Position numbers and translations under genes: made by a program | In this document: in pieces, positions 1,550 to 23,093 of the stretch | Numbering within the stretch: position 1 is the stretch's first letter | Layout of the letters: each line of letters begins with the position of its first letter | From: a virus | Taxonomy: Duplodnaviria > Caudoviricetes | Direction: 5' to 3' (one strand) | Length of the DNA stretch: 35,949 nucleotides | IMG/VR virus record: IMGVR_UViG_3300020460_000030 | Location: 1-35,949 of that record | Notes under the pieces: generated by a model | What the model was told of the DNA's origin: nothing | Database searches by the model: none | The model's input: only the letters and a program-made list of their open reading frames with translations

Positions 1550-1654
1550 ATGAGCAGGTTACAAATATACAAGCATTTAATAAGAAATAATATTTTTAAA
1601 ATACGAGATAAAATAAAAGAGATACAAAAGCCTTTTATAAGAAAGCGTAGATGA
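1550..1654 (+). CDS. small basic hypothetical protein (34 aa, MSRLQIYKHLIRNNIFK...)
   Basis: Read by hand; its stop overlaps the sigma-factor ATG (ATGA). Confidence 0.5.
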   Translation: MSRLQIYKHLIRNNIFKIRDKIKEIQKPFIRKRR

Positions 1655-2433
1655 AAAACTTCAATAAGAAAATATATTCTTTAAACATGCAGGACACTGC
1701 ATTGCATTTACCTCAACATGAAATACCTATGGAATATTATAAGATGGCTTCTAATATTGCAAATAGTTTTTCTAAAGAATATAATGCAATTGGTGTGCTA
1801 GACCTAAATGATTTAACTCAGGAAGGTTATTTAGCTTTATTAATTTCATGGCGTAATATTAAATGGAATATTATAAATGAAATAAAAAATAAAGTTGACA
1901 AACAAAAAGCATTATCTAAATACTTAAAAAAAAGTATTACAGGTATTGTAAGAGACCGTATTAAAAAAGATGCTGATGGTGTTAATTTACCAGTTAAAGG
2001 CATTTGGAATAATAAGGAAAAAAAAAGAATGACAGACGGCTTTAGTTATGTTACTGCATTATTCCCGCAGTGGTTTGATACAGACATAATTAATATAGCC
2101 GAGGAAGAAGTGTACGAATATGATTATGAAATGTTAGGAGAGTACATAGACGAATGGGCCCAGAAGCATTTACCTAAATATCATGTGATGTTAAAAATGT
2201 TATATGGTATTGATGATATTTATTCTAAACCTAAAAAGATAGCAGAGATTGCTAAATTTTTTAGTATGCCTATGGAAAATGTAAAAAAACAAAAACAAAG
2301 ACTATTAATAAAAATAAAAAATAACATGCAGGCACTCAAAGAGTTAGCTTACTTCGTTGCTATACACGATATAAAAAGCCGCTCTCAGGTACATGATTTT
2401 GCACAAAAATATTTGCAAATTTATAGAGATTAA
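1651..2433 (+). CDS. phage RNA polymerase sigma-70-like factor
   Basis: Region 2.2-like LDLNDLTQEGYLALL; region 4 HTH-like MLYGI...KKIAEIAKFFSMPMENVKKQKQRLLIKIK. Confidence 0.75.
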   Translation: MKNFNKKIYSLNMQDTALHLPQHEIPMEYYKMASNIANSFSKEYNAIGVLDLNDLTQEGYLALLISWRNIKWNIINEIKNKVDKQKALSKYLKKSITGIVRDRIKKDADGVNLPVKGIWNNKEKKRMTDGFSYVTALFPQWFDTDIINIAEEEVYEYDYEMLGEYIDEWAQKHLPKYHVMLKMLYGIDDIYSKPKKIAEIAKFFSMPMENVKKQKQRLLIKIKNNMQALKELAYFVAIHDIKSRSQVHDFAQKYLQIYRD

Positions 2434-7521: not shown

Positions 7522-7847
7522 AAAAATTATTATTATTATTGTTACCTTTAATTGGTTATTCACAAATGCAACAAACATTTAGTGGAGAAACAATTTATAT
7601 AAATGGCGATGAATATGAAATTATTGGCAAAAGCTATGATGAAAGCATCTCTTTTATAAATGAGATTACAATTGAAGATGCTATAGATGCTCCTTCAGAT
7701 TATGATGCTGTTTATAATTATGATATATATAGAGAAAATAATTTTAATATTAATCTAAATATATTTGAAGAAAAAACAGGACAAGCTATTATTAAAAAAT
7801 CAAATGATGAATATTATTTAATTAATTTATATGGAGATAAATATTGA
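7518..7847 (+). CDS. putative exported protein with signal peptide
   Basis: MKKLLLLLLPLIGYS|Q N-terminus; acidic mature part. Confidence 0.7.
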   Translation: MKKLLLLLLPLIGYSQMQQTFSGETIYINGDEYEIIGKSYDESISFINEITIEDAIDAPSDYDAVYNYDIYRENNFNINLNIFEEKTGQAIIKKSNDEYYLINLYGDKY

Positions 7848-8604
7848 AAAAGGTAAATACAAAATATACCATATTCCAGGCAAAAAAATTGGGTGTACAA
7901 CAAATATTAAAAAACGTGTTGAACAAGAACAAGGATATAAGCCGGGTGAATATGAAATATTATATGAAACAGATGATATAAGTGAAGCATCAAAAGCAGA
8001 AAAAGCTTTACAAAAAGATTTAGGCTATAAAGAAGATATTAAATTATATAAAGATTTATTTAAAAAGACTATGAATAAGCACAGCTCTTCCGAAGCAACT
8101 ACAACATATAAAGTACCTATTGATAAAATAAATGCAAAGTTTTTAGCTGATATGAAAATAGAAACTTTATATGGCACATTTGTATTAGACTCACAAGATA
8201 AAATTGAATGGGTATTAAGTAATGTAAATCAAAGTCAATATGGCCCGGACACTTGCTATACATACAACAAAGCAATGTCTGAAGCTGGTGCATTTCAAAA
8301 ACAAGAAAGCGATATTTACTTTGATGAAATAAGAAGCTGGGCAGATATTAGAGGTATTGTTAAAGAAGGCAATGATAAAGTACAGTATGTCAAACTAATG
8401 GAAGAAGCCGGTGAGCTTGCTCAAGCTTTATTAAAAGATAATGATAATGAAATAAAGGATGCTATAGGTGATATGGTTGTTGTGCTAACTAATCTTGCAT
8501 CGCTTAGAGGATTTAAAATAGAAGATTGCATTAATCACGCATATAAAGAAATTGCTAATAGAACAGGTAAAATGGTTAACGGAACATTTGTAAAAGATAA
8601 ATAA
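7831..8604 (+). CDS. fusion of N-terminal GIY-YIG-like domain and C-terminal MazG-like NTP pyrophosphohydrolase
   Basis: YKIYHIPGKKIGCTTNIKKR..E; C-terminal WA..RG..KLMEEAGELA..EIKDAIGDMVVVL..AY.EI..R.GK. Confidence 0.8.
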   Translation: MEINIEKGKYKIYHIPGKKIGCTTNIKKRVEQEQGYKPGEYEILYETDDISEASKAEKALQKDLGYKEDIKLYKDLFKKTMNKHSSSEATTTYKVPIDKINAKFLADMKIETLYGTFVLDSQDKIEWVLSNVNQSQYGPDTCYTYNKAMSEAGAFQKQESDIYFDEIRSWADIRGIVKEGNDKVQYVKLMEEAGELAQALLKDNDNEIKDAIGDMVVVLTNLASLRGFKIEDCINHAYKEIANRTGKMVNGTFVKDK

Positions 8605-14580: not shown

Positions 14581-17500
14581 TTAACTTACTTTTCTTTCTG
14601 CTTTATTTGCTGCGGCTTCCCAAGGTAATTTAGAATGACCTTCTGGAAATTTTTTGCCATTATAAACAACCTTCTTATCAGGTGTTCTTTTATATTGCTT
14701 TCCTTTATAAAAAATAAAATTATTATTATAATTTAGTATTCCATTTTTTATATCTTGTAAATGCTTTTTTTCATGAGCAATAACTTTTTTTCTTTTTTCT
14801 TTTGACAAACCAGGCTTTATCTGCATAGTGCCATCTTTATATGCTCTACCTAATACGCCCTCGGGTAATCCTTTTTGCAAAAGATCGTCTAGTTTAAATT
14901 CACCTTTTTTTCTTCTTTTTCTTTTAGGCTTTAAAAGTTTTTCAAATAAAGCATCATTTGCTTTTTTTAATTCTTTATCTAACTTCTCTGCTTCTCTTTC
15001 TTTTTCAATAAGACCAACATCCCATTTACTATAACCTAAAGCTAAAGCAATACTTTGCCACATTTCTGTATCACTATCAACAGAAGCTCTTAAGTTTTCA
15101 AACTTACGTAAAGCTCTGTCTAATGGTATATTAGCTGTAGCTGATAAAATCTGAGCGGCTGCCATATATGCTGGATTGTCTATAGATGTAGGGCCTAACT
15201 CTTTTATTTTTTCTCTATTTTGTTTATATTTGAACGCTCTACCTGCGGACATTAATTTACTTAGTTTAGAATCTATAGGAGGCGATAATGTTGTAATTTC
15301 CATTGCCGCTTTTTCAAAATCTTTTTTGCCTTTAGCTTGATCTATAACTTCTAATACAATATTTTTTGCGGCAGATACAGCAGCTCCCGCTATACCAGAT
15401 CCTCTAAGTAAAGTATCGGCTATTCCATTACCAATACGCCCAATAGCTTCTTTTTTCTTTTCGTCTTCGTCATCATCGGAAAACAACATTGCAAACATTG
15501 CACTTTGTAAAGCTGTGAAAATAACATTTTGAACGGCTCCATAATAAACTAGTTTAGATAAATTAGTTTTCCAATCACCTCTATTATTAATCAAATCTAA
15601 AGCAGCTTTTTTAGTCAACCTAGTATATTGCATAGGTGTATTAGCAAAAGCTAGTATAAGGCGCCCTAAAGGGCTTGCTTGTTGAAGCGATACTCTATCT
15701 GGTCGTGATGATTGTTGTGATTCTTCTGTTATCTCTTTAAAATCAAGAAATGCTTTTTCTTTAGCTTCCTTTTCATTAAGCCCTTGCTTTAAATATGTTT
15801 TAATTCTATTTCTATAAAACGATGCACCACCAAACGATATCGCAAAACTATCCGCCATTTGTGTAGGTAAAAATCCTTTTTTAAGTAAAGCTGAAAGCCC
15901 AGCCCTAAATTTATTTTCAGATGTTTCCGCTGTTCTAGCAATTTCATCTGCATTAACATCAGTTTTTAATCCTGATCTTCTTGATTTTAAAAAGTCAGAA
16001 TTAAATATTTCTGAAAAATCTGCCCAAAATTGTTTTTGATTTGCTGCTGTTGCTGCTATTCTTATTGGATTATTATCTGTAAAGTTTATATAATTTAAAG
16101 CAGAAAGCGTTTGAAGCAGTGCAGAACGGCTATTAAAAAACATTATAGTACCAACAGAATCATTAACCCAGTTTAAATATAAATTACTAAGCCTATTACC
16201 ACCAGTTGGTCTGTTCCTACCGGTTTTCATTCTATAAAGCATGTCTTCTAAAGCTTCAGTATATTTATCCCCGTATATGGCTTTTAGTTTATTTATGTTT
16301 TCTTTGCTATACACAATGTCCACATTATTTTGCCATTGCTCTAAATATTTTTTTCTTGAAACAGTATTAGTATAATTAACTAAATCAGTTGTTATAGTAC
16401 CTGCCAGCCAATCAGTACCTGTAGGGTCTGGGTAACCATCAGGTGTTAGCGATTGAATTTGATTTGCAAAATCTTTTAATTCTTTCTTAGATTTTACATA
16501 TTTATTTACAGCAGCAATTTCTTTTTGCTTAAGTCCTAAATCTTTAGCATTAACTCCTTGCTTAGACCACAAGTGTATTCTTATAGCATTTTCATTAGTA
16601 AAATTATTTATGCCTTCTTTACTTAATTTAGCGGGAGTATTTTTAATTTGTTTTTTTAAGTTTTCCCATGACTTTAATGAAACTTGTTTATCTATTTCAA
16701 AATCACGTATACCTCTGGCGTATGGTGTTATAATATTTTTTTTATACCATTCTAAATTTTTTTCACCTGTTTTACCTTTACCAAGAGTTGGATATATAAG
16801 GCCCATGTAATCTTCTGCGGAATAAGGTACAAAAAATTTAAAAGGATTATTTTTCTTACCTAATATGTTAGCTGTTGCTTCAGAAAATTTCTGTCTTGTT
16901 GGTACACCTTTAACTTGTTCTAATATTCTATTAAATTCAGTACTTAAAGATTTTTGTGCTACAGCTTTATCTTTATTACTTATAAATGGATTAGGATCTT
17001 TACCAAAATAATCAACTTTATTAGCTACATCTGGAATAACATTTACTCTTTCAACATAAGAATCCTCTTTAATATTAAACTCTTGTCTCATTTCATTTCT
17101 TCCATACTCATTATCTATAAGATCTGCATTTTCTTTAGATAAAAGCCCTTGCTTAAATTGTTTTTTAACATCAGGAAGTATTTCAGTAGCAAAATTAGGT
17201 TCGTTATTAAATATAGCTTTTGCTAATATTCTAGCAGCAAAAAGATTAGGAACAGCATGCTCCCAAACAGTTTCAATACTAGGGTCTTTTTTTAATTTAT
17301 TTATTAAATCTTTTTCTATATAAACAATTTCAGCCATTAATGAGTGTACGTGGTTTCTTTCTTGTACAGACCCAGCTAATAATTGTAAAAAAGAATTCCT
17401 ATGCTGCATATTTTTTCCCTCACTAAATAAGTCTGCTGCTTTATTCCAAAATGCAGTACCCATTTCATCATTTTTAGCATTGTAAATTCTAAAATCTTCA

Positions 17501-20500
17501 ACAAGCACTTTGGGGTCTTTTGCTAACTTATTACCTATTTTATATCTTTGACTTGGTTTTGTTTTGCCATATTTTTGCAAACGAGTTTTTATACCGTTAT
17601 ATTCAAATCTTTCTGAATTTTTTGGATAATCTATTTTATCAATTTCTTTTTTTGCAAAATTCCAATTTTGTTTAGCTAATTTACCTTTAGCATCTTCTTC
17701 TTTACCAAAAACACCAAAAACCATACTTGACGAAAGCAAACCATTTGGAAATTCTTTATTAAAAAACTTTACGCTATTAATATATTTATTTAAATTTTCT
17801 TTAAAATTAGTACCATCAAGACTTAAATCAACAAATAAATCAGCAGTGCCCACATCAACTAAAATATCTCGTACCCATGCTTTTTGAGCAAGCGCAAGAG
17901 GAATACCTTGTTGTTGTTGAAACTGTTGTGCTTGATCTGGGTTTGCTACAGCAAATTTATTAACCGCGTCTTTAGTTAAAAGATAAACTAACGCATCATT
18001 TAAAGCCCTATTTCTTCTATCTGATCTTGTATTAGATTTAATATTTGGATCATTAAAATAACCTAATACAGATTCTTTTGTTGCTTTGCCATCTTTCCAA
18101 CTTTGTAATAAATCTTTTGTTTCTTTATTTTGTATTTTATTTATATTTTTCTTATCAACAAAAGCTTCAGCAACAGTTTTCCAGTTTTTAGATATATAAT
18201 CTATTTGATTATCTTTTCCTAAATTTTTAATAGTATTTTTAATATCCTTGCCTATTTCTCTATTAACTATAGCTGCAGCAGCTTTTTCTTTTATAGTTGT
18301 TTTTTGCTTTAAAGAAGCTTTAGGATTCTTTTTAAGTTGATTTTGTATATTTAATACAGCTAATTGTGCAATATCAGCGGTAACTTTATCACTTATACCC
18401 TTAGGTAAATTAATTTTTTCAGATATTGGTTTATCTATTACAGCTTCAGGTGCTGCTTCAGCAGTTACTTGTATACTTTCAGGAGCATCTAATTTTTTAG
18501 CATCAGATGTTTTTTGAGAACCAATTCTTTTTTCTGCAATTCTTTTAGCTCTTTGAGTACCTATTTCTTTTAACCAGCCACCTAAAGATCTACCTTGCTC
18601 AGGATCATAAGCTAATGCAATTTCTCTTAAACTATTGGCGCCGCCTATTTCATCGGGCCTACCAAACGCAATGTCTTGTTCAAACTCGCCTTTAGTATAG
18701 CCTTGCTCTCCCTCAAAATTTTTAGCATATATTTTATTGGCTATTGAAGCGGCTAAAGGTTCGTAGGCTAAAGCAATTCTAGTAGCTAATTCACCGGGCA
18801 TAGTACCTACTTTATATTTATTAGCTTCTTCTTGTAATATATTTCTGTCTAAAGATTTTTGTGCAATACCTTTATCTTCTTTTTCAATAAAAGCTTTTCT
18901 TTCTTGTAGCGTTGTTTTTTTATTAAAATTATTATATTTTTTTATAAATTGTATAAAGTTTGTGCCAGTTAAATTTTTTAAAGGCAAAGCATTTTCTGTA
19001 TTTTTATTAAAAATATTTTTTACAAAATCAGCAAGTTTTTTAAACTTTTGGCCTTGCTCTAAACTAAGATTTTCAATTTGTAATGCTTTAAGCTCGTCTG
19101 CATATGCTGCTAAAAATTCTTCATTTAATTTTTTACCTTTATAACCTCTTTCTCTATATATAGATTCTATTTTTTTTGCCATGTCAAGAGCTTTTTGAGT
19201 TTGTTCATCAAGCCCAGTCATACTTTTAATTTCAATAACCAATGCTGCTAACTCTTTTTCATTAAAAGAATCAAATATTAAATGTAAAGCTTCATGGTGT
19301 ATGGAATTAGCCGCATATAAATCCCCTTTGTCTAAATTTTTTTCTTGATTTTCTTTTGAAATAATTCCAAAGCGACCTTTTTTTACAGCGTTATTTTCTC
19401 CTTTTAATAAATTTTGTACTTCCGGATCATTAAGGCCCTCTTTACCAAATTCATTTTCAATAAATTTTTTAATTTCTTTATTTGTATTGAATACAGTTAT
19501 TGTTTTGCCTTTAAATATACCCGTTTCATCAGAATTAATATAATCAATAAGAGGTTCTCCATGGTTATCTATATCATCTAAAGCTATTTGTTTATATATT
19601 TGTCCTTTAACATTATTTACTTTTTTAGTTTGCTCAACTAATTCGTTTAAAAGGTCAAACCCAACATTTTCTTCTCCACCGTTTTCTTGTATTTTATTTT
19701 CTATTTCTTCAAGATTTTTTTCTTCTTCAGATAAATTTTGAAGTTCTTCAAATACTATTTTTTTTCTATTACCACTTAAATTTCTTAACTTAGTAGAGTT
19801 AATATAAGCTTTAACTACATCAAGTTCTTTATAAAAAGATTCATCTTTTTTATCTAATTCTTCTAAAAGTGAATCTCTTGTTTGCTCATCAATTTCACCT
19901 TGCCCAAATCTTTCGTATATATTATTTTTTTCCTGTTCATATTGTTTTTCAAATTCTTCCGCTAATCCATTTGAAACTGTTTGTGCTGATTCTGGGTCCA
20001 TTGAAGCAATTTGTTCCATTACTTCTCTTTTACCTGTTCTAAATACTTTACCACCAAATGCTATAGGTCCTGGAACAATAAAAGATTGTGCGGCCACTTC
20101 ATAAAATTCTTTTCTATTATCTAAAATAAAATCTGTATAGTCTTTTACTTTTTCAAAAGTACCAGGGTTTACAGCTTCTTCAACTCCTGTTAAACTAACA
20201 AAAGACTGTCCGCCCTCTGTTATTGATTCAACAGCACCAGGCAAAGCTACTGTCCTACCAGCTCCTATCGCTGTACTTTTTAAAGTTTTTAAAATATTGC
20301 CCCTTACCGCATTTCTAACAAAGCTTTTAGGTATTAATTTTGCACCTCCTAATGTAACAAAATTTGAAACTAATTCAAGCCCAGCAGCTTTTCCGCCTAT
20401 TGACATTGCTTTATCTATATCTGCTTCTCCTAAATTAACAATATCTATTATAGCTTGAGCTTGATCTTCATTAGGAAGTTTATAAAAATCTTCCATAGAA

Positions 20501-21369
20501 ATACCTAATTTTCTAGCAGCTTTACGAGAAGCTATATCCATAGCTGCTTGGCCAGACTCTTGCACAAATGTAGATCCGCTACCTGTAAATATTGAAACAA
20601 GCATTTGCGGTAATTGATCACCCAATATTTTAGGCACAGCGTTTTCATCCATTAACTGGCTAAAAGATTTAATTGAATTATCATCATTAAATACCTCAAC
20701 TGCTCCTACTTCAGAAATTTTATCTTGATATTCTTTACTTTTAATAATAGATTCTAAAAGATTATTTTCATTTGAAATTAATTCTTTTTCAATATCTTGT
20801 AGTCTTTGTCCTTTAGTCGTTGTTTTTTCGCCTATTGTTACCCCCGATTTTGGAGATATAGTACCTCCAAAAGATATTAAAGTATCATTTGATAAGCCAT
20901 CGTTTAATAACCTTTCTTTTTCTTCTTGTAATTCTTTTTGTTTTGTAGCAGCGGTTTGATATTTAAAATCAGTAATAGCTTTAGGAAATGTATTAGCAAA
21001 AGTATTAACAAATCTTTCTTTAAAAGAATCTTTATCTACTTCAATATCACCAAAAAAAGTATCATAAAATGTTCTTTTTTCTTTCTTTGGTACTCTTTCA
21101 ATGTCTGACTGCCTAGTTTGAGATCTTACACTAGTTCTTGGTGATTCCAAAGAACCAACTGCCGGCTGTGAAACCAAATCTTCTAGTGTTATTTGCCCCG
21201 CTGCAGGTGCAGTTGTCTCCGCAGGGGGCTTTTGAAAATTTTCAGTACTATTTATTAATTCTTGTTTTTTAAGCAAAGCTCTTCTTTCAAGTTCCTCTTG
21301 TTCTATTCCTTCTTGTTCAAGAGCTCTTATAAAATTCATTAATTCTAATTCTTGTTCAGGTGTTAACAT
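14581..21369 (-). CDS. giant multidomain internal virion/ejection protein (2262 aa) with two HExxH zincin motifs and a sigma-region-2-like segment
   Basis: Follows the tail, GNAT and two ejection-like genes; HHEALH...NEEF near aa 692; AHEKKH...LPWE near aa 2199. Confidence 0.75.
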   Translation of the reverse strand: MLTPEQELELMNFIRALEQEGIEQEELERRALLKKQELINSTENFQKPPAETTAPAAGQITLEDLVSQPAVGSLESPRTSVRSQTRQSDIERVPKKEKRTFYDTFFGDIEVDKDSFKERFVNTFANTFPKAITDFKYQTAATKQKELQEEKERLLNDGLSNDTLISFGGTISPKSGVTIGEKTTTKGQRLQDIEKELISNENNLLESIIKSKEYQDKISEVGAVEVFNDDNSIKSFSQLMDENAVPKILGDQLPQMLVSIFTGSGSTFVQESGQAAMDIASRKAARKLGISMEDFYKLPNEDQAQAIIDIVNLGEADIDKAMSIGGKAAGLELVSNFVTLGGAKLIPKSFVRNAVRGNILKTLKSTAIGAGRTVALPGAVESITEGGQSFVSLTGVEEAVNPGTFEKVKDYTDFILDNRKEFYEVAAQSFIVPGPIAFGGKVFRTGKREVMEQIASMDPESAQTVSNGLAEEFEKQYEQEKNNIYERFGQGEIDEQTRDSLLEELDKKDESFYKELDVVKAYINSTKLRNLSGNRKKIVFEELQNLSEEEKNLEEIENKIQENGGEENVGFDLLNELVEQTKKVNNVKGQIYKQIALDDIDNHGEPLIDYINSDETGIFKGKTITVFNTNKEIKKFIENEFGKEGLNDPEVQNLLKGENNAVKKGRFGIISKENQEKNLDKGDLYAANSIHHEALHLIFDSFNEKELAALVIEIKSMTGLDEQTQKALDMAKKIESIYRERGYKGKKLNEEFLAAYADELKALQIENLSLEQGQKFKKLADFVKNIFNKNTENALPLKNLTGTNFIQFIKKYNNFNKKTTLQERKAFIEKEDKGIAQKSLDRNILQEEANKYKVGTMPGELATRIALAYEPLAASIANKIYAKNFEGEQGYTKGEFEQDIAFGRPDEIGGANSLREIALAYDPEQGRSLGGWLKEIGTQRAKRIAEKRIGSQKTSDAKKLDAPESIQVTAEAAPEAVIDKPISEKINLPKGISDKVTADIAQLAVLNIQNQLKKNPKASLKQKTTIKEKAAAAIVNREIGKDIKNTIKNLGKDNQIDYISKNWKTVAEAFVDKKNINKIQNKETKDLLQSWKDGKATKESVLGYFNDPNIKSNTRSDRRNRALNDALVYLLTKDAVNKFAVANPDQAQQFQQQQGIPLALAQKAWVRDILVDVGTADLFVDLSLDGTNFKENLNKYINSVKFFNKEFPNGLLSSSMVFGVFGKEEDAKGKLAKQNWNFAKKEIDKIDYPKNSERFEYNGIKTRLQKYGKTKPSQRYKIGNKLAKDPKVLVEDFRIYNAKNDEMGTAFWNKAADLFSEGKNMQHRNSFLQLLAGSVQERNHVHSLMAEIVYIEKDLINKLKKDPSIETVWEHAVPNLFAARILAKAIFNNEPNFATEILPDVKKQFKQGLLSKENADLIDNEYGRNEMRQEFNIKEDSYVERVNVIPDVANKVDYFGKDPNPFISNKDKAVAQKSLSTEFNRILEQVKGVPTRQKFSEATANILGKKNNPFKFFVPYSAEDYMGLIYPTLGKGKTGEKNLEWYKKNIITPYARGIRDFEIDKQVSLKSWENLKKQIKNTPAKLSKEGINNFTNENAIRIHLWSKQGVNAKDLGLKQKEIAAVNKYVKSKKELKDFANQIQSLTPDGYPDPTGTDWLAGTITTDLVNYTNTVSRKKYLEQWQNNVDIVYSKENINKLKAIYGDKYTEALEDMLYRMKTGRNRPTGGNRLSNLYLNWVNDSVGTIMFFNSRSALLQTLSALNYINFTDNNPIRIAATAANQKQFWADFSEIFNSDFLKSRRSGLKTDVNADEIARTAETSENKFRAGLSALLKKGFLPTQMADSFAISFGGASFYRNRIKTYLKQGLNEKEAKEKAFLDFKEITEESQQSSRPDRVSLQQASPLGRLILAFANTPMQYTRLTKKAALDLINNRGDWKTNLSKLVYYGAVQNVIFTALQSAMFAMLFSDDDEDEKKKEAIGRIGNGIADTLLRGSGIAGAAVSAAKNIVLEVIDQAKGKKDFEKAAMEITTLSPPIDSKLSKLMSAGRAFKYKQNREKIKELGPTSIDNPAYMAAAQILSATANIPLDRALRKFENLRASVDSDTEMWQSIALALGYSKWDVGLIEKEREAEKLDKELKKANDALFEKLLKPKRKRRKKGEFKLDDLLQKGLPEGVLGRAYKDGTMQIKPGLSKEKRKKVIAHEKKHLQDIKNGILNYNNNFIFYKGKQYKRTPDKKVVYNGKKFPEGHSKLPWEAAANKAERKVS
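21131..21241 (-). other. candidate -1 programmed ribosomal frameshift cassette (slippery heptamer, pseudoknot, 34-codon transframe tail)
   Basis: In-frame A_AAT_TTT (21241-21235); spacer CAAAA; stem 1 GCCCCCTGC/GCAGCGGGGC; stem 2 CAACTGC/GCAGTTG. Confidence 0.6.
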
Positions 21370-21371
21370 AA

Positions 21372-23093
21372 TTATTGATTAAAAACGTTTGGATATCTTT
21401 TTTTAACAGCTTCAAATTCGGTTGCATCAAGTGCTCCATCATTATTAATATCAAACTCTGGATATTCGTTAGCTAATGATATTTTAATATCTCTCCCTCG
21501 GCCCTGAGCCGCTTGTATAGGATCGTTAGTTCCTGGTTTAAATCTTGGAAGCCATTCTGTTGGGGCAAGCCCATGAGCTTGACCAACTTTACGCCATTGC
21601 GTATCTAAATCATCATCAAATCTTATAATTATATCTTCTCTTGGTCTTTGTATATTAGTTAATTTATGATTAGTAATTCTATATCCTATTGGCTGAGTTT
21701 GAATCTCTATAGCTTTTTTAACTAATTTTGCTTTTTCTTCGTCATTTTTTTCTGCAGCAATTCGATCAAGCATTGCTTGTGATACTTGTCCAAAAACAGG
21801 CTGTGGATTGTGAAATCCTTTATTTACCAAACTATTAAATAAATCTTTTTGGTATCCCATTGGATCTCTTGTTTTAAACTGATCTAAACTTTCAGTTGTA
21901 CGTTTGTCACCATCTGTTACAGCTATACCTTGATATGAACCAGACATTACATCAGAACCGTCTTGATTTTTATAAGTCATATTAGGTAAATTATTTTGAA
22001 TAGATTTAACATCTGCTATATTAGCAAATTGATCTTGTGTTTCTAAATAGTATCTACCTCTTGATTGTTTTAGATTTTGTACTTTTTCAGTATTAATACC
22101 ATAAATGCCCCTAGCTCTATTTATCCATTCATCTCGCAATTTTCTATCGAGCATTGTTCTTACACCATCGTCTTTTTCTTCTGCAGATAAATTTGCAGGG
22201 TCAATTTGTGTTTGTGCAAGAGCTAAAGTTTCATCTTTTGTTAAACCAAAATGATCAACTAATAAAGATCTTTTTTTTCTTATAATTTTATCGTCTTCAT
22301 TTCCATTTTGTGATACAATAGTATCTAAATTATCTAATGCAATATCTTTAGCAGATAAATTTACCGAACCGTCATTGCCGATAGCTTTTTCATCAAAACC
22401 TAATACATTACCGCCAGTGCTTGTTTGAACTTTCATAGCACCTTGTATAGAAGCGTCTATATCCTCTTTTTTTAATAATTTATCATTTAATTTAGCAAAT
22501 TCACTAACAGCTACTCTATATTCTTTACCTTCTGGTGTTGTAGAAACAAATTCAAGTTGGCCATCAACAGTTTCAAATTTTCCGTTAGGAGCTCCTCTTT
22601 CAAAATCCATAGCCATCATTAATACATCATTATCTGTAAAATCAGATAATTCTCCATCCGCCATCATTTTATTAGCGTTGTTTACAAATAATTTAGCACC
22701 TTGTTCTACGTTTTTTAAATAACCAACCTGGCTTTTTAATTTAGACATTTCATTTGCATATGTATCATAATCTCCAGTATTTTTAAGTTGGGTAGTTAAA
22801 TACCCACCATAATCAGCTAAAGATCTTCCCGCATTATTTAAAAATGTATCAATGCCCTTTTGACCAGTTTGAGAAGTTATATTTAGATCATTCATGTCAT
22901 CCATTAAAGCATTACTAAGCTTCATTTGATAAACTTGTTGCCTTAATGCAGATTCTCTCCTTTTAAGTGCTTGATCTTCTCTTAATCTTTGTTCAGCAAA
23001 AGCAGAATCTATAGCATCACCAACCATTTTTTGTGATGCTGCACCACCTGGTTGAAATTGAAATGCGTCTTTATATTTACTGTATGTATCCAT
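21372..23093 (-). CDS. putative internal virion/ejection protein with C-terminal EF-hand motif
   Basis: Helical 573-aa protein between the pilot-like and giant genes; DINNDGALDATE loop. Confidence 0.65.
   Translation of the reverse strand: MDTYSKYKDAFQFQPGGAASQKMVGDAIDSAFAEQRLREDQALKRRESALRQQVYQMKLSNALMDDMNDLNITSQTGQKGIDTFLNNAGRSLADYGGYLTTQLKNTGDYDTYANEMSKLKSQVGYLKNVEQGAKLFVNNANKMMADGELSDFTDNDVLMMAMDFERGAPNGKFETVDGQLEFVSTTPEGKEYRVAVSEFAKLNDKLLKKEDIDASIQGAMKVQTSTGGNVLGFDEKAIGNDGSVNLSAKDIALDNLDTIVSQNGNEDDKIIRKKRSLLVDHFGLTKDETLALAQTQIDPANLSAEEKDDGVRTMLDRKLRDEWINRARGIYGINTEKVQNLKQSRGRYYLETQDQFANIADVKSIQNNLPNMTYKNQDGSDVMSGSYQGIAVTDGDKRTTESLDQFKTRDPMGYQKDLFNSLVNKGFHNPQPVFGQVSQAMLDRIAAEKNDEEKAKLVKKAIEIQTQPIGYRITNHKLTNIQRPREDIIIRFDDDLDTQWRKVGQAHGLAPTEWLPRFKPGTNDPIQAAQGRGRDIKISLANEYPEFDINNDGALDATEFEAVKKRYPNVFNQ

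Follow-up and report, generated by a model that had tools for sequence, protein, structure and literature searches.

Does one giant gene of this phage encode two proteins, a chain of 2,262 residues and a much shorter one made by slipping out of its frame? The window, i.e., the whole 35,949-nt stretch that was analyzed from a viral record ~55% complete, carries this gene on its minus strand, and a candidate -1 frameshift signal had been proposed near its start. We consider it probable, with good confidence, that programmed -1 ribosomal frameshifting within the giant gene would yield a 79-residue protein. That the shift occurs in cells, and at what rate, we infer from the comparisons below.

The gene order in the record is portal, probable capsid, muzzle-type tail, giant gene. 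A 1,483-aa protein has the crAss muzzle C-terminal domain, and its N terminus is 26 to 35% identical to proteins of Pachyviridae-, Pervagoviridae-, and Elemovirus-related Flavobacteriia podophages; a 511-aa structural protein is 40 to 48% identical to its counterparts in these phages, whose structural core genes lie in the same order as in the record. Judging from such relatives, the host would be of Flavobacteriia type. The giant gene occupies the position of phi18:3 gp123, whose GenBank note cites MS/MS, and its product is likely an internal virion protein that is ejected. Its C-terminal region matches Gundel gp074 (E = 8e-9 in a search among seven proteins). The giant protein had no PHROG match and no Pfam match at the curated cutoff (10 homologs gave none at cutoff in either search), blastn and tblastn of the gene against cultured phages returned nothing, and Rfam 15 had no match at the gathering threshold in the whole window. 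The ESM Atlas returned viral clusters without names, the nearest named sets being LPD39 and LPD38; recognition lay below the mark, and these serve as a lead only.

Slip site and predicted pseudoknot in the giant gene

The features of the locus, all on the minus strand, are as follows.

14581..21369 (-): giant 2,262-aa open reading frame, final large gene of the structural module; yields the 0-frame product
21235..21369 (-): shared N-terminal 45 codons, a predicted acidic two-helix hairpin domain common to both products
21242..21250 (-): TAG (21250-21248) and TGA (21244-21242), closing the -1 frame
21235..21241 (-): candidate slippery heptamer A_AAU_UUU, with A-site tetramer U_UUU, in the correct phase
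21230..21234 (-): 5-nt spacer CAAAA
21221..21229 (-): predicted pseudoknot stem 1, 5' arm GCCCCCTGC
21195..21204 (-): predicted pseudoknot stem 1, 3' arm GCAGCGGGGC, with a single bulged C here and none in relative L003
21209..21215 (-): predicted pseudoknot stem 2, 5' arm CAACTGC, inside the stem-1 loop
21156..21162 (-): predicted pseudoknot stem 2, 3' arm GCAGTTG, 32 nt away
21203..21211 (-): -1 frame CxC, where stem 2 adjoins stem 1
21143..21178 (-): conserved -1 frame motif FGFTAGSWFFGI, a predicted beta-hairpin
21134..21155 (-): lineage-specific RNA hairpin, earlier proposed as a switch; not kept across the family
21131..21235 (-): -1 frame tail, 34 codons plus a TAG stop (21133-21131); basic, Cys-containing, with an aromatic end

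How closely does this arrangement resemble a bacterial -1 site? Codons 43 to 45 of the giant gene read GAA AAT TTT, which places the heptamer AAATTTT at 21241-21235 (minus strand) as a phased motif that permits A-site re-pairing. H_HH.U_UU.Y is among the efficient slip motifs of Escherichia coli, and A_AAG and U_UUY are its top slip tetramers (PMC4066793). Every coordinate given in the initial annotation for slip site, spacer, stems, and loop was recovered on the minus strand, and its account of a -1 frame closed upstream, open for 34 codons, and giving a 79-aa product (45 shared codons plus 34 in the -1 frame) proved exact. Because TAG and TGA close the -1 frame upstream, entry to the tail would take place at or after 21241. 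The GC-rich island described earlier in an AT-rich gene is likewise present: the 60 nt from 21229 are the gene's GC maximum (0.55 vs. a mean of 0.30). Of the 50 X_XXY_YYZ heptamers that lie in frame in the gene, the one at this site is followed by the strongest stem by a wide margin (-20.2 kcal/mol; the next is -11.4). The fold has z = -2.5, with 4 of 200 shuffles equally stable, and the pseudoknot score is matched by 2.1% of 1,000 dinucleotide shuffles (P = 0.021); taken alone, the window gives a structure modestly above chance. Its stem-2 3' partner is displaced 7 to 8 nt downstream from the partner site that is usual in the family and used in L003, L270, L296, L306, and L315; the duplex is worth -8.7 kcal/mol at 21156-21162 vs. 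-2.3 at the usual site, unpaired in this genome.

Nine A's are a slippage-prone length, and dnaX uses either a ribosomal slip or an A-run (PMC1088944). The window has A4 then T4, short of the run of at least nine A or T taken as the mark of transcriptional slippage. A ribosomal slip at CAA_AAG was considered and rejected: stem 1 would have zero spacer, and L003 reads CAA AAC. Strain variation across four sequencing runs came to 7 variable sites in 451 nt, with none in 21131-21250 and no indels, a gap that is not significant, because about two sites were expected there.

Conservation and A-run forms among relatives

Is the site kept beyond this genome? An in-phase slip site followed by a predicted pseudoknot occurs in 130 of 144 distinct members, slip sites in relatives being taken as the best-scoring candidates, and the spacer is 5 to 7 nt in 121 of the 130. 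The slip sequence varies and its phase is kept (G_GAU_UUU in L003 and L007; A_AAU_UUU also in L274 and L304). Spacer, shuffles, and covariation all speak for a predicted 3' stimulator within the 5 to 9 nt downstream that is expected at bacterial -1 sites. In the set found by motif search, the predicted pseudoknots exceed dinucleotide shuffles (P <= 0.05) for 62 of 76 members vs. 1 of 9 A-run members. Among 18 sequences, which are related and were chosen by our own pseudoknot finder, two-sided changes affect 11 of 18 pairs (in stem 1, 7 of 11) and 84.9% of cells pair; none of 500 shuffles reaches the observed values, and slid controls pair at no more than 49.7%. With in-phase slip sites kept in relatives and stems that covary, the homolog comparison suggested in the initial annotation came out in its favor, and its proposal of a -1 frameshift at A_AAU_UUU with an H-type pseudoknot gains support.

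Selection on the new frame was approached through searches that differed in what they fixed. The first pattern fixed the FFGI bases, and its result was excluded as evidence of FFGI conservation; it gave 120 loci, 33 of them in phase with an open long frame, including two nonmembers (L018 and L092). When slip site and stem 2 only were searched, 30 of 37 distinct in-phase long-ORF matches had the -1 frame motif, vs. 0 of 70 remaining matches by the strict motif expression. Across 23 new members, nucleotide changes in the codons of the three motif glycines are confined to the third position of the -1 frame, and 0-frame residues vary freely. Conversely, a motif-only search blind to slip sites found 109 distinct viral matches, each in the -1 frame relative to an ORF that is long or open; in 88 of the 109, A_AAG or U_UUY stands 45 to 75 nt upstream of the motif in the right phase, vs. 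7 and 39 in the other phases. A search of genome contigs gave 17 matches, mostly chance, of which L378, L379, L384, and L392 were counted as members; the bin labels of these four disagree and so do not fix the host.

Could these patterns arise with no ribosomal frameshift at all, through another RNA role, RNA-level conservation of the motif, or a separately initiated small gene? Such an account would draw on the 8 of 14 loci with giant-protein homologs that lack the cassette, which is thus dispensable in some lineages. It is extremely improbable, however, given that in the window, no ATG occurs in the -1 frame from the upstream stop to the motif (one does in 1 of the 109 viral matches), that variation tracks the -1 codon phase, and that slip tetramers are phase-locked 5 to 7 nt before the stem. 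By sequence comparison, then, the site is conserved with selection on the new frame, and it belongs to a conserved cassette, putatively for recoding, located 5' in the giant gene that comes last among the structural genes of Flavobacteriia-type podophages.

A second form of the cassette has a run of A's. A pattern of A8 plus the motif alone gave 105 distinct metagenome loci (A9 in 14, A10 in 89, A11 and A13 in one each, A8 in none), and the motif is -1 to the long ORF in every one. At least nine A's, the length set for slippage, are found in 105 of 105 loci and in 10 of 10 annotated relatives; in all 10 of the latter (264 kb), the sole sense-strand run of nine or more A's sits at the cassette position. 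A9 members often read A_AAA_AAG, so a ribosomal slip would also be possible in them. Nine cultured relatives have an A9 or A10 run at this position, the A-run form being present in phi38:1 and phi18:3 of Cellulophaga baltica, and relative to the frame of the upstream ATG, the giant ORF lies at -1 in phi13:2, phi18:3, phi19:3, phi46:3, and Panino. The link to cultured phages is drawn from position, frame, and composition, plus WFFG in five closely placed cases (four near-identical); cultured-phage tails gave no scoring match to the tail profile (best E > 2), and tblastn of one tail gave a single chance match (E = 6). The idea that the giant frame invariably follows from A10 does not hold generally: MW202828 has A11 in frame 0.

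The predicted short product and its possible roles

What would the second protein look like? AlphaFold2 places helices at residues 4 to 20 and 24 to 42 of the N-terminal domain (pLDDT 92), a hairpin with no Foldseek match in the PDB at E <= 0.001 and one among several small domains that are unrelated to each other, can be exchanged, and stop at the slip site. The -1 tail is single copy in the record (E = 8e-14). Its end follows the family consensus [YF]G[IF]xxG[RK][WY]FFGI, with strands predicted by AlphaFold2 at tail residues 20 to 26 and 29 to 35 (pLDDT 72 to 79) that would form an amphipathic hairpin, and the median net charge of tails across the family is +4. CxC is present in 115 of 130 pseudoknot members vs. 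0 of 12 A-run members, and the -1 frame contains 389 TGY codons vs. 1 TGG. Four tail copies predicted as a complex scored 0.02, which is evidence in neither direction. A tail-profile search found 28 proteins, all of 58 to 131 aa, 26 of which consist of a small N-terminal part with the motif in frame near the C terminus; of 10 in-frame small proteins that were checked, 9 form singleton clusters and may reflect indels from assembly.

The shift had been read as truncating the giant chain and setting a ratio between the two proteins. A short product is still expected, but mere truncation is unlikely, since the -1 tail motif is conserved at the protein level. A shift that just truncates and sets the ratio, the tail being incidental or hairpin-tuned, would accord with a -1 frame that is short, as in dnaX and copA, and with the -8.9 kcal/mol RNA hairpin of this lineage; selection on the -1 peptide appears, however, in motif-blind searches and in members lacking a pseudoknot, which makes this account very unlikely. 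Nor did the competing hairpin hold up as a switch: the -8.9 kcal/mol value is confined to the close lineage, with a family median of -3.45 and just 22 of 144 members reaching -6. Its arm GUUCUUUGG (21155-21147) adjoins the 7-bp stem-2 core (21162-21156) and overlaps only the part of stem 2 that extends beyond the mismatch, along with 2 nt in the version from RNAfold; in L003 and L007 it makes no contact with stem 2. Because the -1 tail itself appears to be under selection and the A-run offers a second route to it, the second product is likely functional.

In the mechanism that we favor, the pseudoknot would pause ribosomes on the giant gene, and some would slip back one base at A_AAU_UUU, joining the 45-residue N-terminal domain to the conserved basic tail with its predicted aromatic beta-hairpin. 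What might this protein do? Our leading suggestion, put at a little under even chances, is that it serves as an adaptor in assembly, produced in a fixed proportion to the giant cargo protein. The tail hairpin would bind a conserved virion component, which might be the portal, the tail, or the capsid interior, and the N-terminal domain would have its binding site in common with the giant protein; with both, the short protein would help to load or meter the cargo.

The hairpin could instead be a cationic aromatic element, ejected with the cargo or made late, that acts on the host envelope by membrane insertion or through a conserved Bacteroidota envelope protein. Tail charge and predicted amphipathicity fit this, as does the expectation that crAss001 cargo proteins form a trans-envelope channel (PMC10172136). 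The motif is also kept although the N-terminal domains are unrelated and the giant proteins are poorly related to each other, so a conserved partner is implied, which could be a host part. However, the hairpin is short, the protein has no signal and no long hydrophobic segment, and no result here points to a host partner; we hold an envelope role to be unlikely.

Aromatic clusters can act as Lon degrons, and an aromatic-rich tail at a fixed distance from the stop (14 to 18 codons past the motif start in 130 of 144 members) could be a C-terminal degradation tag that clears a competing N-terminal fragment while the shift lowers the dose of giant protein. This is more doubtful still: three invariant glycines with hairpin spacing exceed what a degron needs, some in-frame small proteins have no obvious slip site, and in five cultured phages the motif frame and the giant frame need different slips, with a third, motif-less frame existing as well.

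The adaptor reading can be widened, as a conjecture with roughly one chance in three, to one gene that specifies a giant cargo for ejection together with the small protein that loads it. An exchangeable tag at the N terminus would be joined either to the cargo or to the beta-hairpin, the hairpin would bind to the core of the virion or else to an envelope protein of the host, and lineages would have switched repeatedly between pseudoknot slip and poly-A slippage. Cultured Pachyviridae would need a slip for both products and thus, if this is true, would make no virion without recoding.

Relation to known recoding systems

How does the cassette compare with known cases? E. coli copA has an early -1 shift in a long gene that gives a small N-terminal protein, CopA(Z), and its slip site, pseudoknot, and position near the gene start are reportedly of similar kind. 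The function of CopA(Z) lies in the shared domain, whereas in the phages, selection appears to act on the new-frame tail, and the shared domain can be exchanged. In dnaX, a long and a short product (tau and gamma) with a common N terminus come from one gene, and the same outcome is reached by -1 ribosomal frameshifting in E. coli and by transcriptional slippage at A9 in Thermus thermophilus (PMC1088944). Yet dnaX shifts late and stops almost immediately; here, the shift would come ~45 codons in and add a conserved tail of 15 to 45 residues, in a structural gene whose cassette occurs in three polarities. IS3-family elements share A_AAG, U_UUY, the heptamer classes, and the geometry of the pseudoknot stimulator (PMC4066793), but their shift makes a long fusion transposase, whereas the phage shift would make a short product and no transposase. 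Lambda G/GT, T7/T3 gene 10, and the A2 capsid are likewise conserved shifts in phage morphogenesis that give two products at a ratio (PMC5009743); they occur close to the 3' end and extend the product, in contrast to a site at the 5' end of a podovirus-type giant gene. Lambda G/GT, moreover, belongs to long-tailed phages, in which the shift falls between the major tail and tape-measure genes; the present one has no such setting and would shorten its product. The crAss001 cargo and the T7/P22 ejection proteins are similarly large, encoded after muzzle or tail genes, packed in the head, and ejected (PMC10172136); the main text of that source mentions frameshifting nowhere, and the likeness to the cargo shown here lies in size and gene position.

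Our literature search found no paper describing the cassette. The earlier phage frameshifts compared here are tail-chaperone and capsid or tail extensions, and this one would sit in the 5' part of a gene that probably encodes an ejection protein. With its many slip motifs and its covarying pseudoknots, the family would serve as a natural library of bacterial -1 signals, and it would stand beside dnaX as a second case in which two recoding routes lead to one product. It predicts that the split phi18:3 gp122/gp123, and their counterparts in phi13:2, phi19:3, phi46:3, and Panino, are each one recoded gene. A conserved small protein, hidden from gene callers, would be spread over marine Bacteroidota-type podophages.

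Slip site and predicted pseudoknot in the window and its close relatives

How well does the candidate −1 frameshift site near the start of the 2262-aa giant gene hold up under comparison? Every coordinate and pairing of the element described in the initial annotation was confirmed in the window. A shift there would join the first 45 residues of the giant protein to a 34-codon tail, giving a 79-aa product whose end carries the motif [YF]G[IF]xxG[RK][WY]FFGI. In isolation the element is modestly above chance (fold z −2.5; pseudoknot p 0.021). Its slip site is the best among the 50 in-frame heptamers of the giant gene and belongs to a class, H_HH.U_UU.Y, reported among efficient E. coli heptamers (PMC4066793).

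14581–21369 (−): giant gene
21235–21241 (−): slip site, A_AAU_UUU
21134–21155 (−): competing hairpin

In a close relative (L003), whose giant protein is 83% identical to the window's, the heptamer is G_GAU_UUU, the bulge of window stem 1 is absent, and the stem-1 loop reads CGGCUGC in place of CAACUGC. The L003 loop has a perfect partner (GCAGCCG) 7–8 nt upstream of the window's partner position, which is itself broken in L003; with different stem-2 partners, both genomes are thus able to form the pseudoknot. This upstream site is the usual stem-2 partner in the family, and in the window it is unpaired (−2.3 kcal/mol vs. −8.7 kcal/mol at the shifted partner), which makes the predicted window stem 2 a derived form, slightly less certain than the family's. 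Among 14 loci with giant-protein homologues, the cassette is present in 6 (three being L001–L003 re-fetched) and absent from 8 (L008–L014 and L016), and the motif was not found in the fetched flanks of those eight. Separately, the ~100 nt past the motif (window 21131–21030 (−) vs. L003 3240–3340) are almost invariant though the proteins differ, which may reflect recent recombination or a further constraint.

Conservation across the family

How widespread is the cassette? The initial pattern coupled G_GGA_AAS to a 3' word and itself fixed part of the motif; of its 120 loci, 33 matched the phase of an open long frame, and 31 of those are members, every one with a −1 tail ending in a YG...FFG-type motif. 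Because part of the motif had been fixed, two further searches were each made blind to one half of the cassette. With slip site and stem 2 alone specified, the motif lay in the −1 frame in 30 of 37 distinct in-phase long-frame matches, while among the 70 other loci the strict motif expression matched none and the loose one a single non-member. Among the 23 newly found members, changes in the three glycine codons are confined to the third base of the −1 codon, and W, Y, or F occupies motif position 8 in 20, with unrelated 0-frame residues there. With the motif alone specified, all 109 distinct viral matches were −1 to a long or open ORF; A_AAG or U_UUY, the two best −1 slip tetramers reported for E. 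coli (PMC4066793), occurred 45–75 nt before it in the correct phase in 88 cases, while the two remaining phases gave 7 and 39.

The pooled searches gave 144 distinct members:

130: slip site and predicted pseudoknot
12: A-run of nine or more
2: neither

An ATG lies 47–99 codons upstream of the motif across the family, the spacer is 5–7 nt in 121 of the 130 pseudoknot members, and a stop follows 14–18 codons past the motif start in 130/144; predicted short products span 62–115 aa (median 79; 128 counted). Of the 76 members recovered by searching for the motif alone, 62 had pseudoknot scores at p ≤ 0.05 against 40 shuffles each, compared with 1 of 9 that have an A-run. The initial annotation had looked to homologues for a shared slip site and covarying stems, and both were found: beside the 130 slip sites with predicted pseudoknots, two-sided changes occur at 11 of 18 pairs in 18 window-like sequences, which are mutually related and were picked by our own pseudoknot finder (0/500 shuffles as high). 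Its proposed switch fared otherwise, as only the window's lineage and a few further ones have the competing hairpin (≤ −6 kcal/mol in 22/144). Of 58 loci, 51 have a homologue of the gene for the window's 1483-aa protein no more than 6 kb upstream, and, within the DNA fetched at each locus, 21 of 49 long 0-frame products match the window giant protein.

These comparisons show the anatomy, phase, and conservation of the cassette and selection on the −1 peptide. The cassette is real and conserved, the shift is predicted from sequence, and ribosomes very probably shift at the window site. The earlier proposal of a −1 shift that merely truncates the giant protein thus keeps its predicted shift site and loses mere truncation, since the tail itself is selected.

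A-run members and cultured relatives

At about 55% completeness, the window is a linear viral record found mainly in marine metagenome runs. Its replication genes lie on the plus strand; the minus strand carries a structural module in this order:

portal
probable capsid
1483-aa protein, with a crAss muzzle C-terminal domain
145-, 409-, 573-, and 2262-aa ORFs

Its closest cultured phages are podoviruses of Flavobacteriia:

Pervagoviridae: Cellulophaga phi38:1, Calle
Pachyviridae: phi13:2, phi18:3, phi19:3, phi46:3, Gundel
further: Flavobacterium elemo, Maribacter Panino

Gene order is common to the window and these relatives, with the giant gene last; MS/MS is cited in the GenBank note of phi18:3 gp123. 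The C-terminal region of the window giant protein matches Gundel gp074 (E 8e-9; the other six of seven proteins gave no match). Together with gene order and the comparison offered by crAss001 cargo proteins (PMC10172136), this leads us to infer that the giant protein would be packed in the virion and ejected.

Several other features of the window were observed:

1651–2433 (+): sigma-factor-like gene in the replication module (phrog_351, E 8e-6)
7831–8604 (+): MazG-like gene in the replication module
21372–21450 (−): EF-hand-like C-terminal segment of the upstream 573-aa protein (Pfam E 0.013, below cut-off), which also has a KxYP-type end resembling one class of family N-terminal domain
2018, 3359, 9108, 9316, 14501, 31160: further homopolymer runs of 9–10 A or T

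The giant protein has two HExxH motifs (aa 692–696 and 2199–2203), which we take to be possible zincin-type peptidase domains; H, E, and H of the first are invariant across 11 homologues. By eye, about aa 865–945 resemble sigma-70 region 2, a likeness without Pfam support.

A metagenome pattern requiring only eight A's ahead of the motif gave 120 loci, 105 of them distinct, with the overlap with the 12 pooled A-run members left in:

A9: 14
A10: 89
A11: 1
A13: 1

None of the 105 has A8, though eight sufficed for the pattern. The motif is always −1 to the long ORF, and the ATG is in frame with the long ORF in 103 loci and with the motif in 2. Tails are short, mostly without CxC. By eye, the N-terminal domain is very often tandemly duplicated in these loci (L405–L524) and mostly single in pseudoknot members. 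Nine-A runs are reported as slippage-prone, and dnaX is expressed by polymerase slippage in Thermus and a ribosomal slip in E. coli (PMC1088944); because many A9 sites also read A_AAA_AAG, either machine could slip at the A-runs.

In all ten relatives (nine cultured phages and one uncultured record; 264 kb fetched), four Baltic Pachyviridae and two Pervagoviridae among them not being independent, the giant-gene 5' end is the only sense-strand site with a run of at least nine A's. The run is A9 in phi13:2, phi18:3, phi19:3, phi46:3, and Panino, where, relative to the upstream ATG frame, the giant ORF is −1 and a WFFG-bearing frame −2; both products would need a slip in these five, unless the giant ORF starts at the annotated TTG or GTG. 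None of the cultured-phage tails scores against the tail profile (best E > 2), which counts against their link to the family. At the run, the giant gene is either split in public annotations or given a late TTG or GTG start:

L399, 28988–29311: phi18:3
L400, 5119–5394: phi13:2
L401, 6056–6376: phi19:3
L402, 5119–5439: phi46:3
L395, 31592–31774: Panino

Our literature search, covering mainly open-access papers, found none on the cassette. The words "frameshift" and "slippage" are absent from the main texts of the family description (PMC8776804), the Panino paper (PMC11590407), and a phi38:1 proteomics paper (PMC13288928), and the PRFect paper mentions neither Cellulophaga, Flavobacterium, nor podoviruses (PMC10885494).

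The predicted short product and its possible role

The shared N-terminal part is acidic and predicted to form two helices (pLDDT 92). Other family members carry different small domains in its place, unrelated to one another and each ending at the slip site; phi13:2 and phi18:3 have the same cassette with different N-terminal domains. The tail is basic (median +4 across the family), and its end is predicted to form a beta-hairpin (pLDDT 72–79; remaining tail 50–54). CxC is present in 115/130 pseudoknot members and 0/12 A-run members. In the −1 frame, TGY codons number 389 vs. a single TGG, an excess that suggests selection for cysteine, or could instead reflect the RNA junction.

Against 1.84 billion proteins, the tail profile gave 28 matches, all of 58–131 aa, 26 of them with the motif near the C-terminus and a small N-terminal part ahead. 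Nine of 10 matches checked are singleton clusters, so assembly indels may account for some in-frame small proteins. Several that have both an N-terminal domain and the motif show no evident slip site (P0018, P0019, P0021, P0023, P0027, and P0037) and may be stand-alone genes.

What might the short protein do? Tentatively, it could be an assembly adaptor, a role to which we give somewhat less than even weight. The hairpin is kept even as N-terminal domains are exchanged and most of the giant protein diverges, so its partner would likely be conserved too, the simplest candidate being the virion core; the ratio of the short protein would be set by its coupling to the giant gene. Alternatively, the short product may act on the host envelope, or the tail may be a degron. 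The cassette would be a previously undescribed form of programmed −1 recoding whose hidden product is under selection, and the predicted shift is testable in cultured phages.
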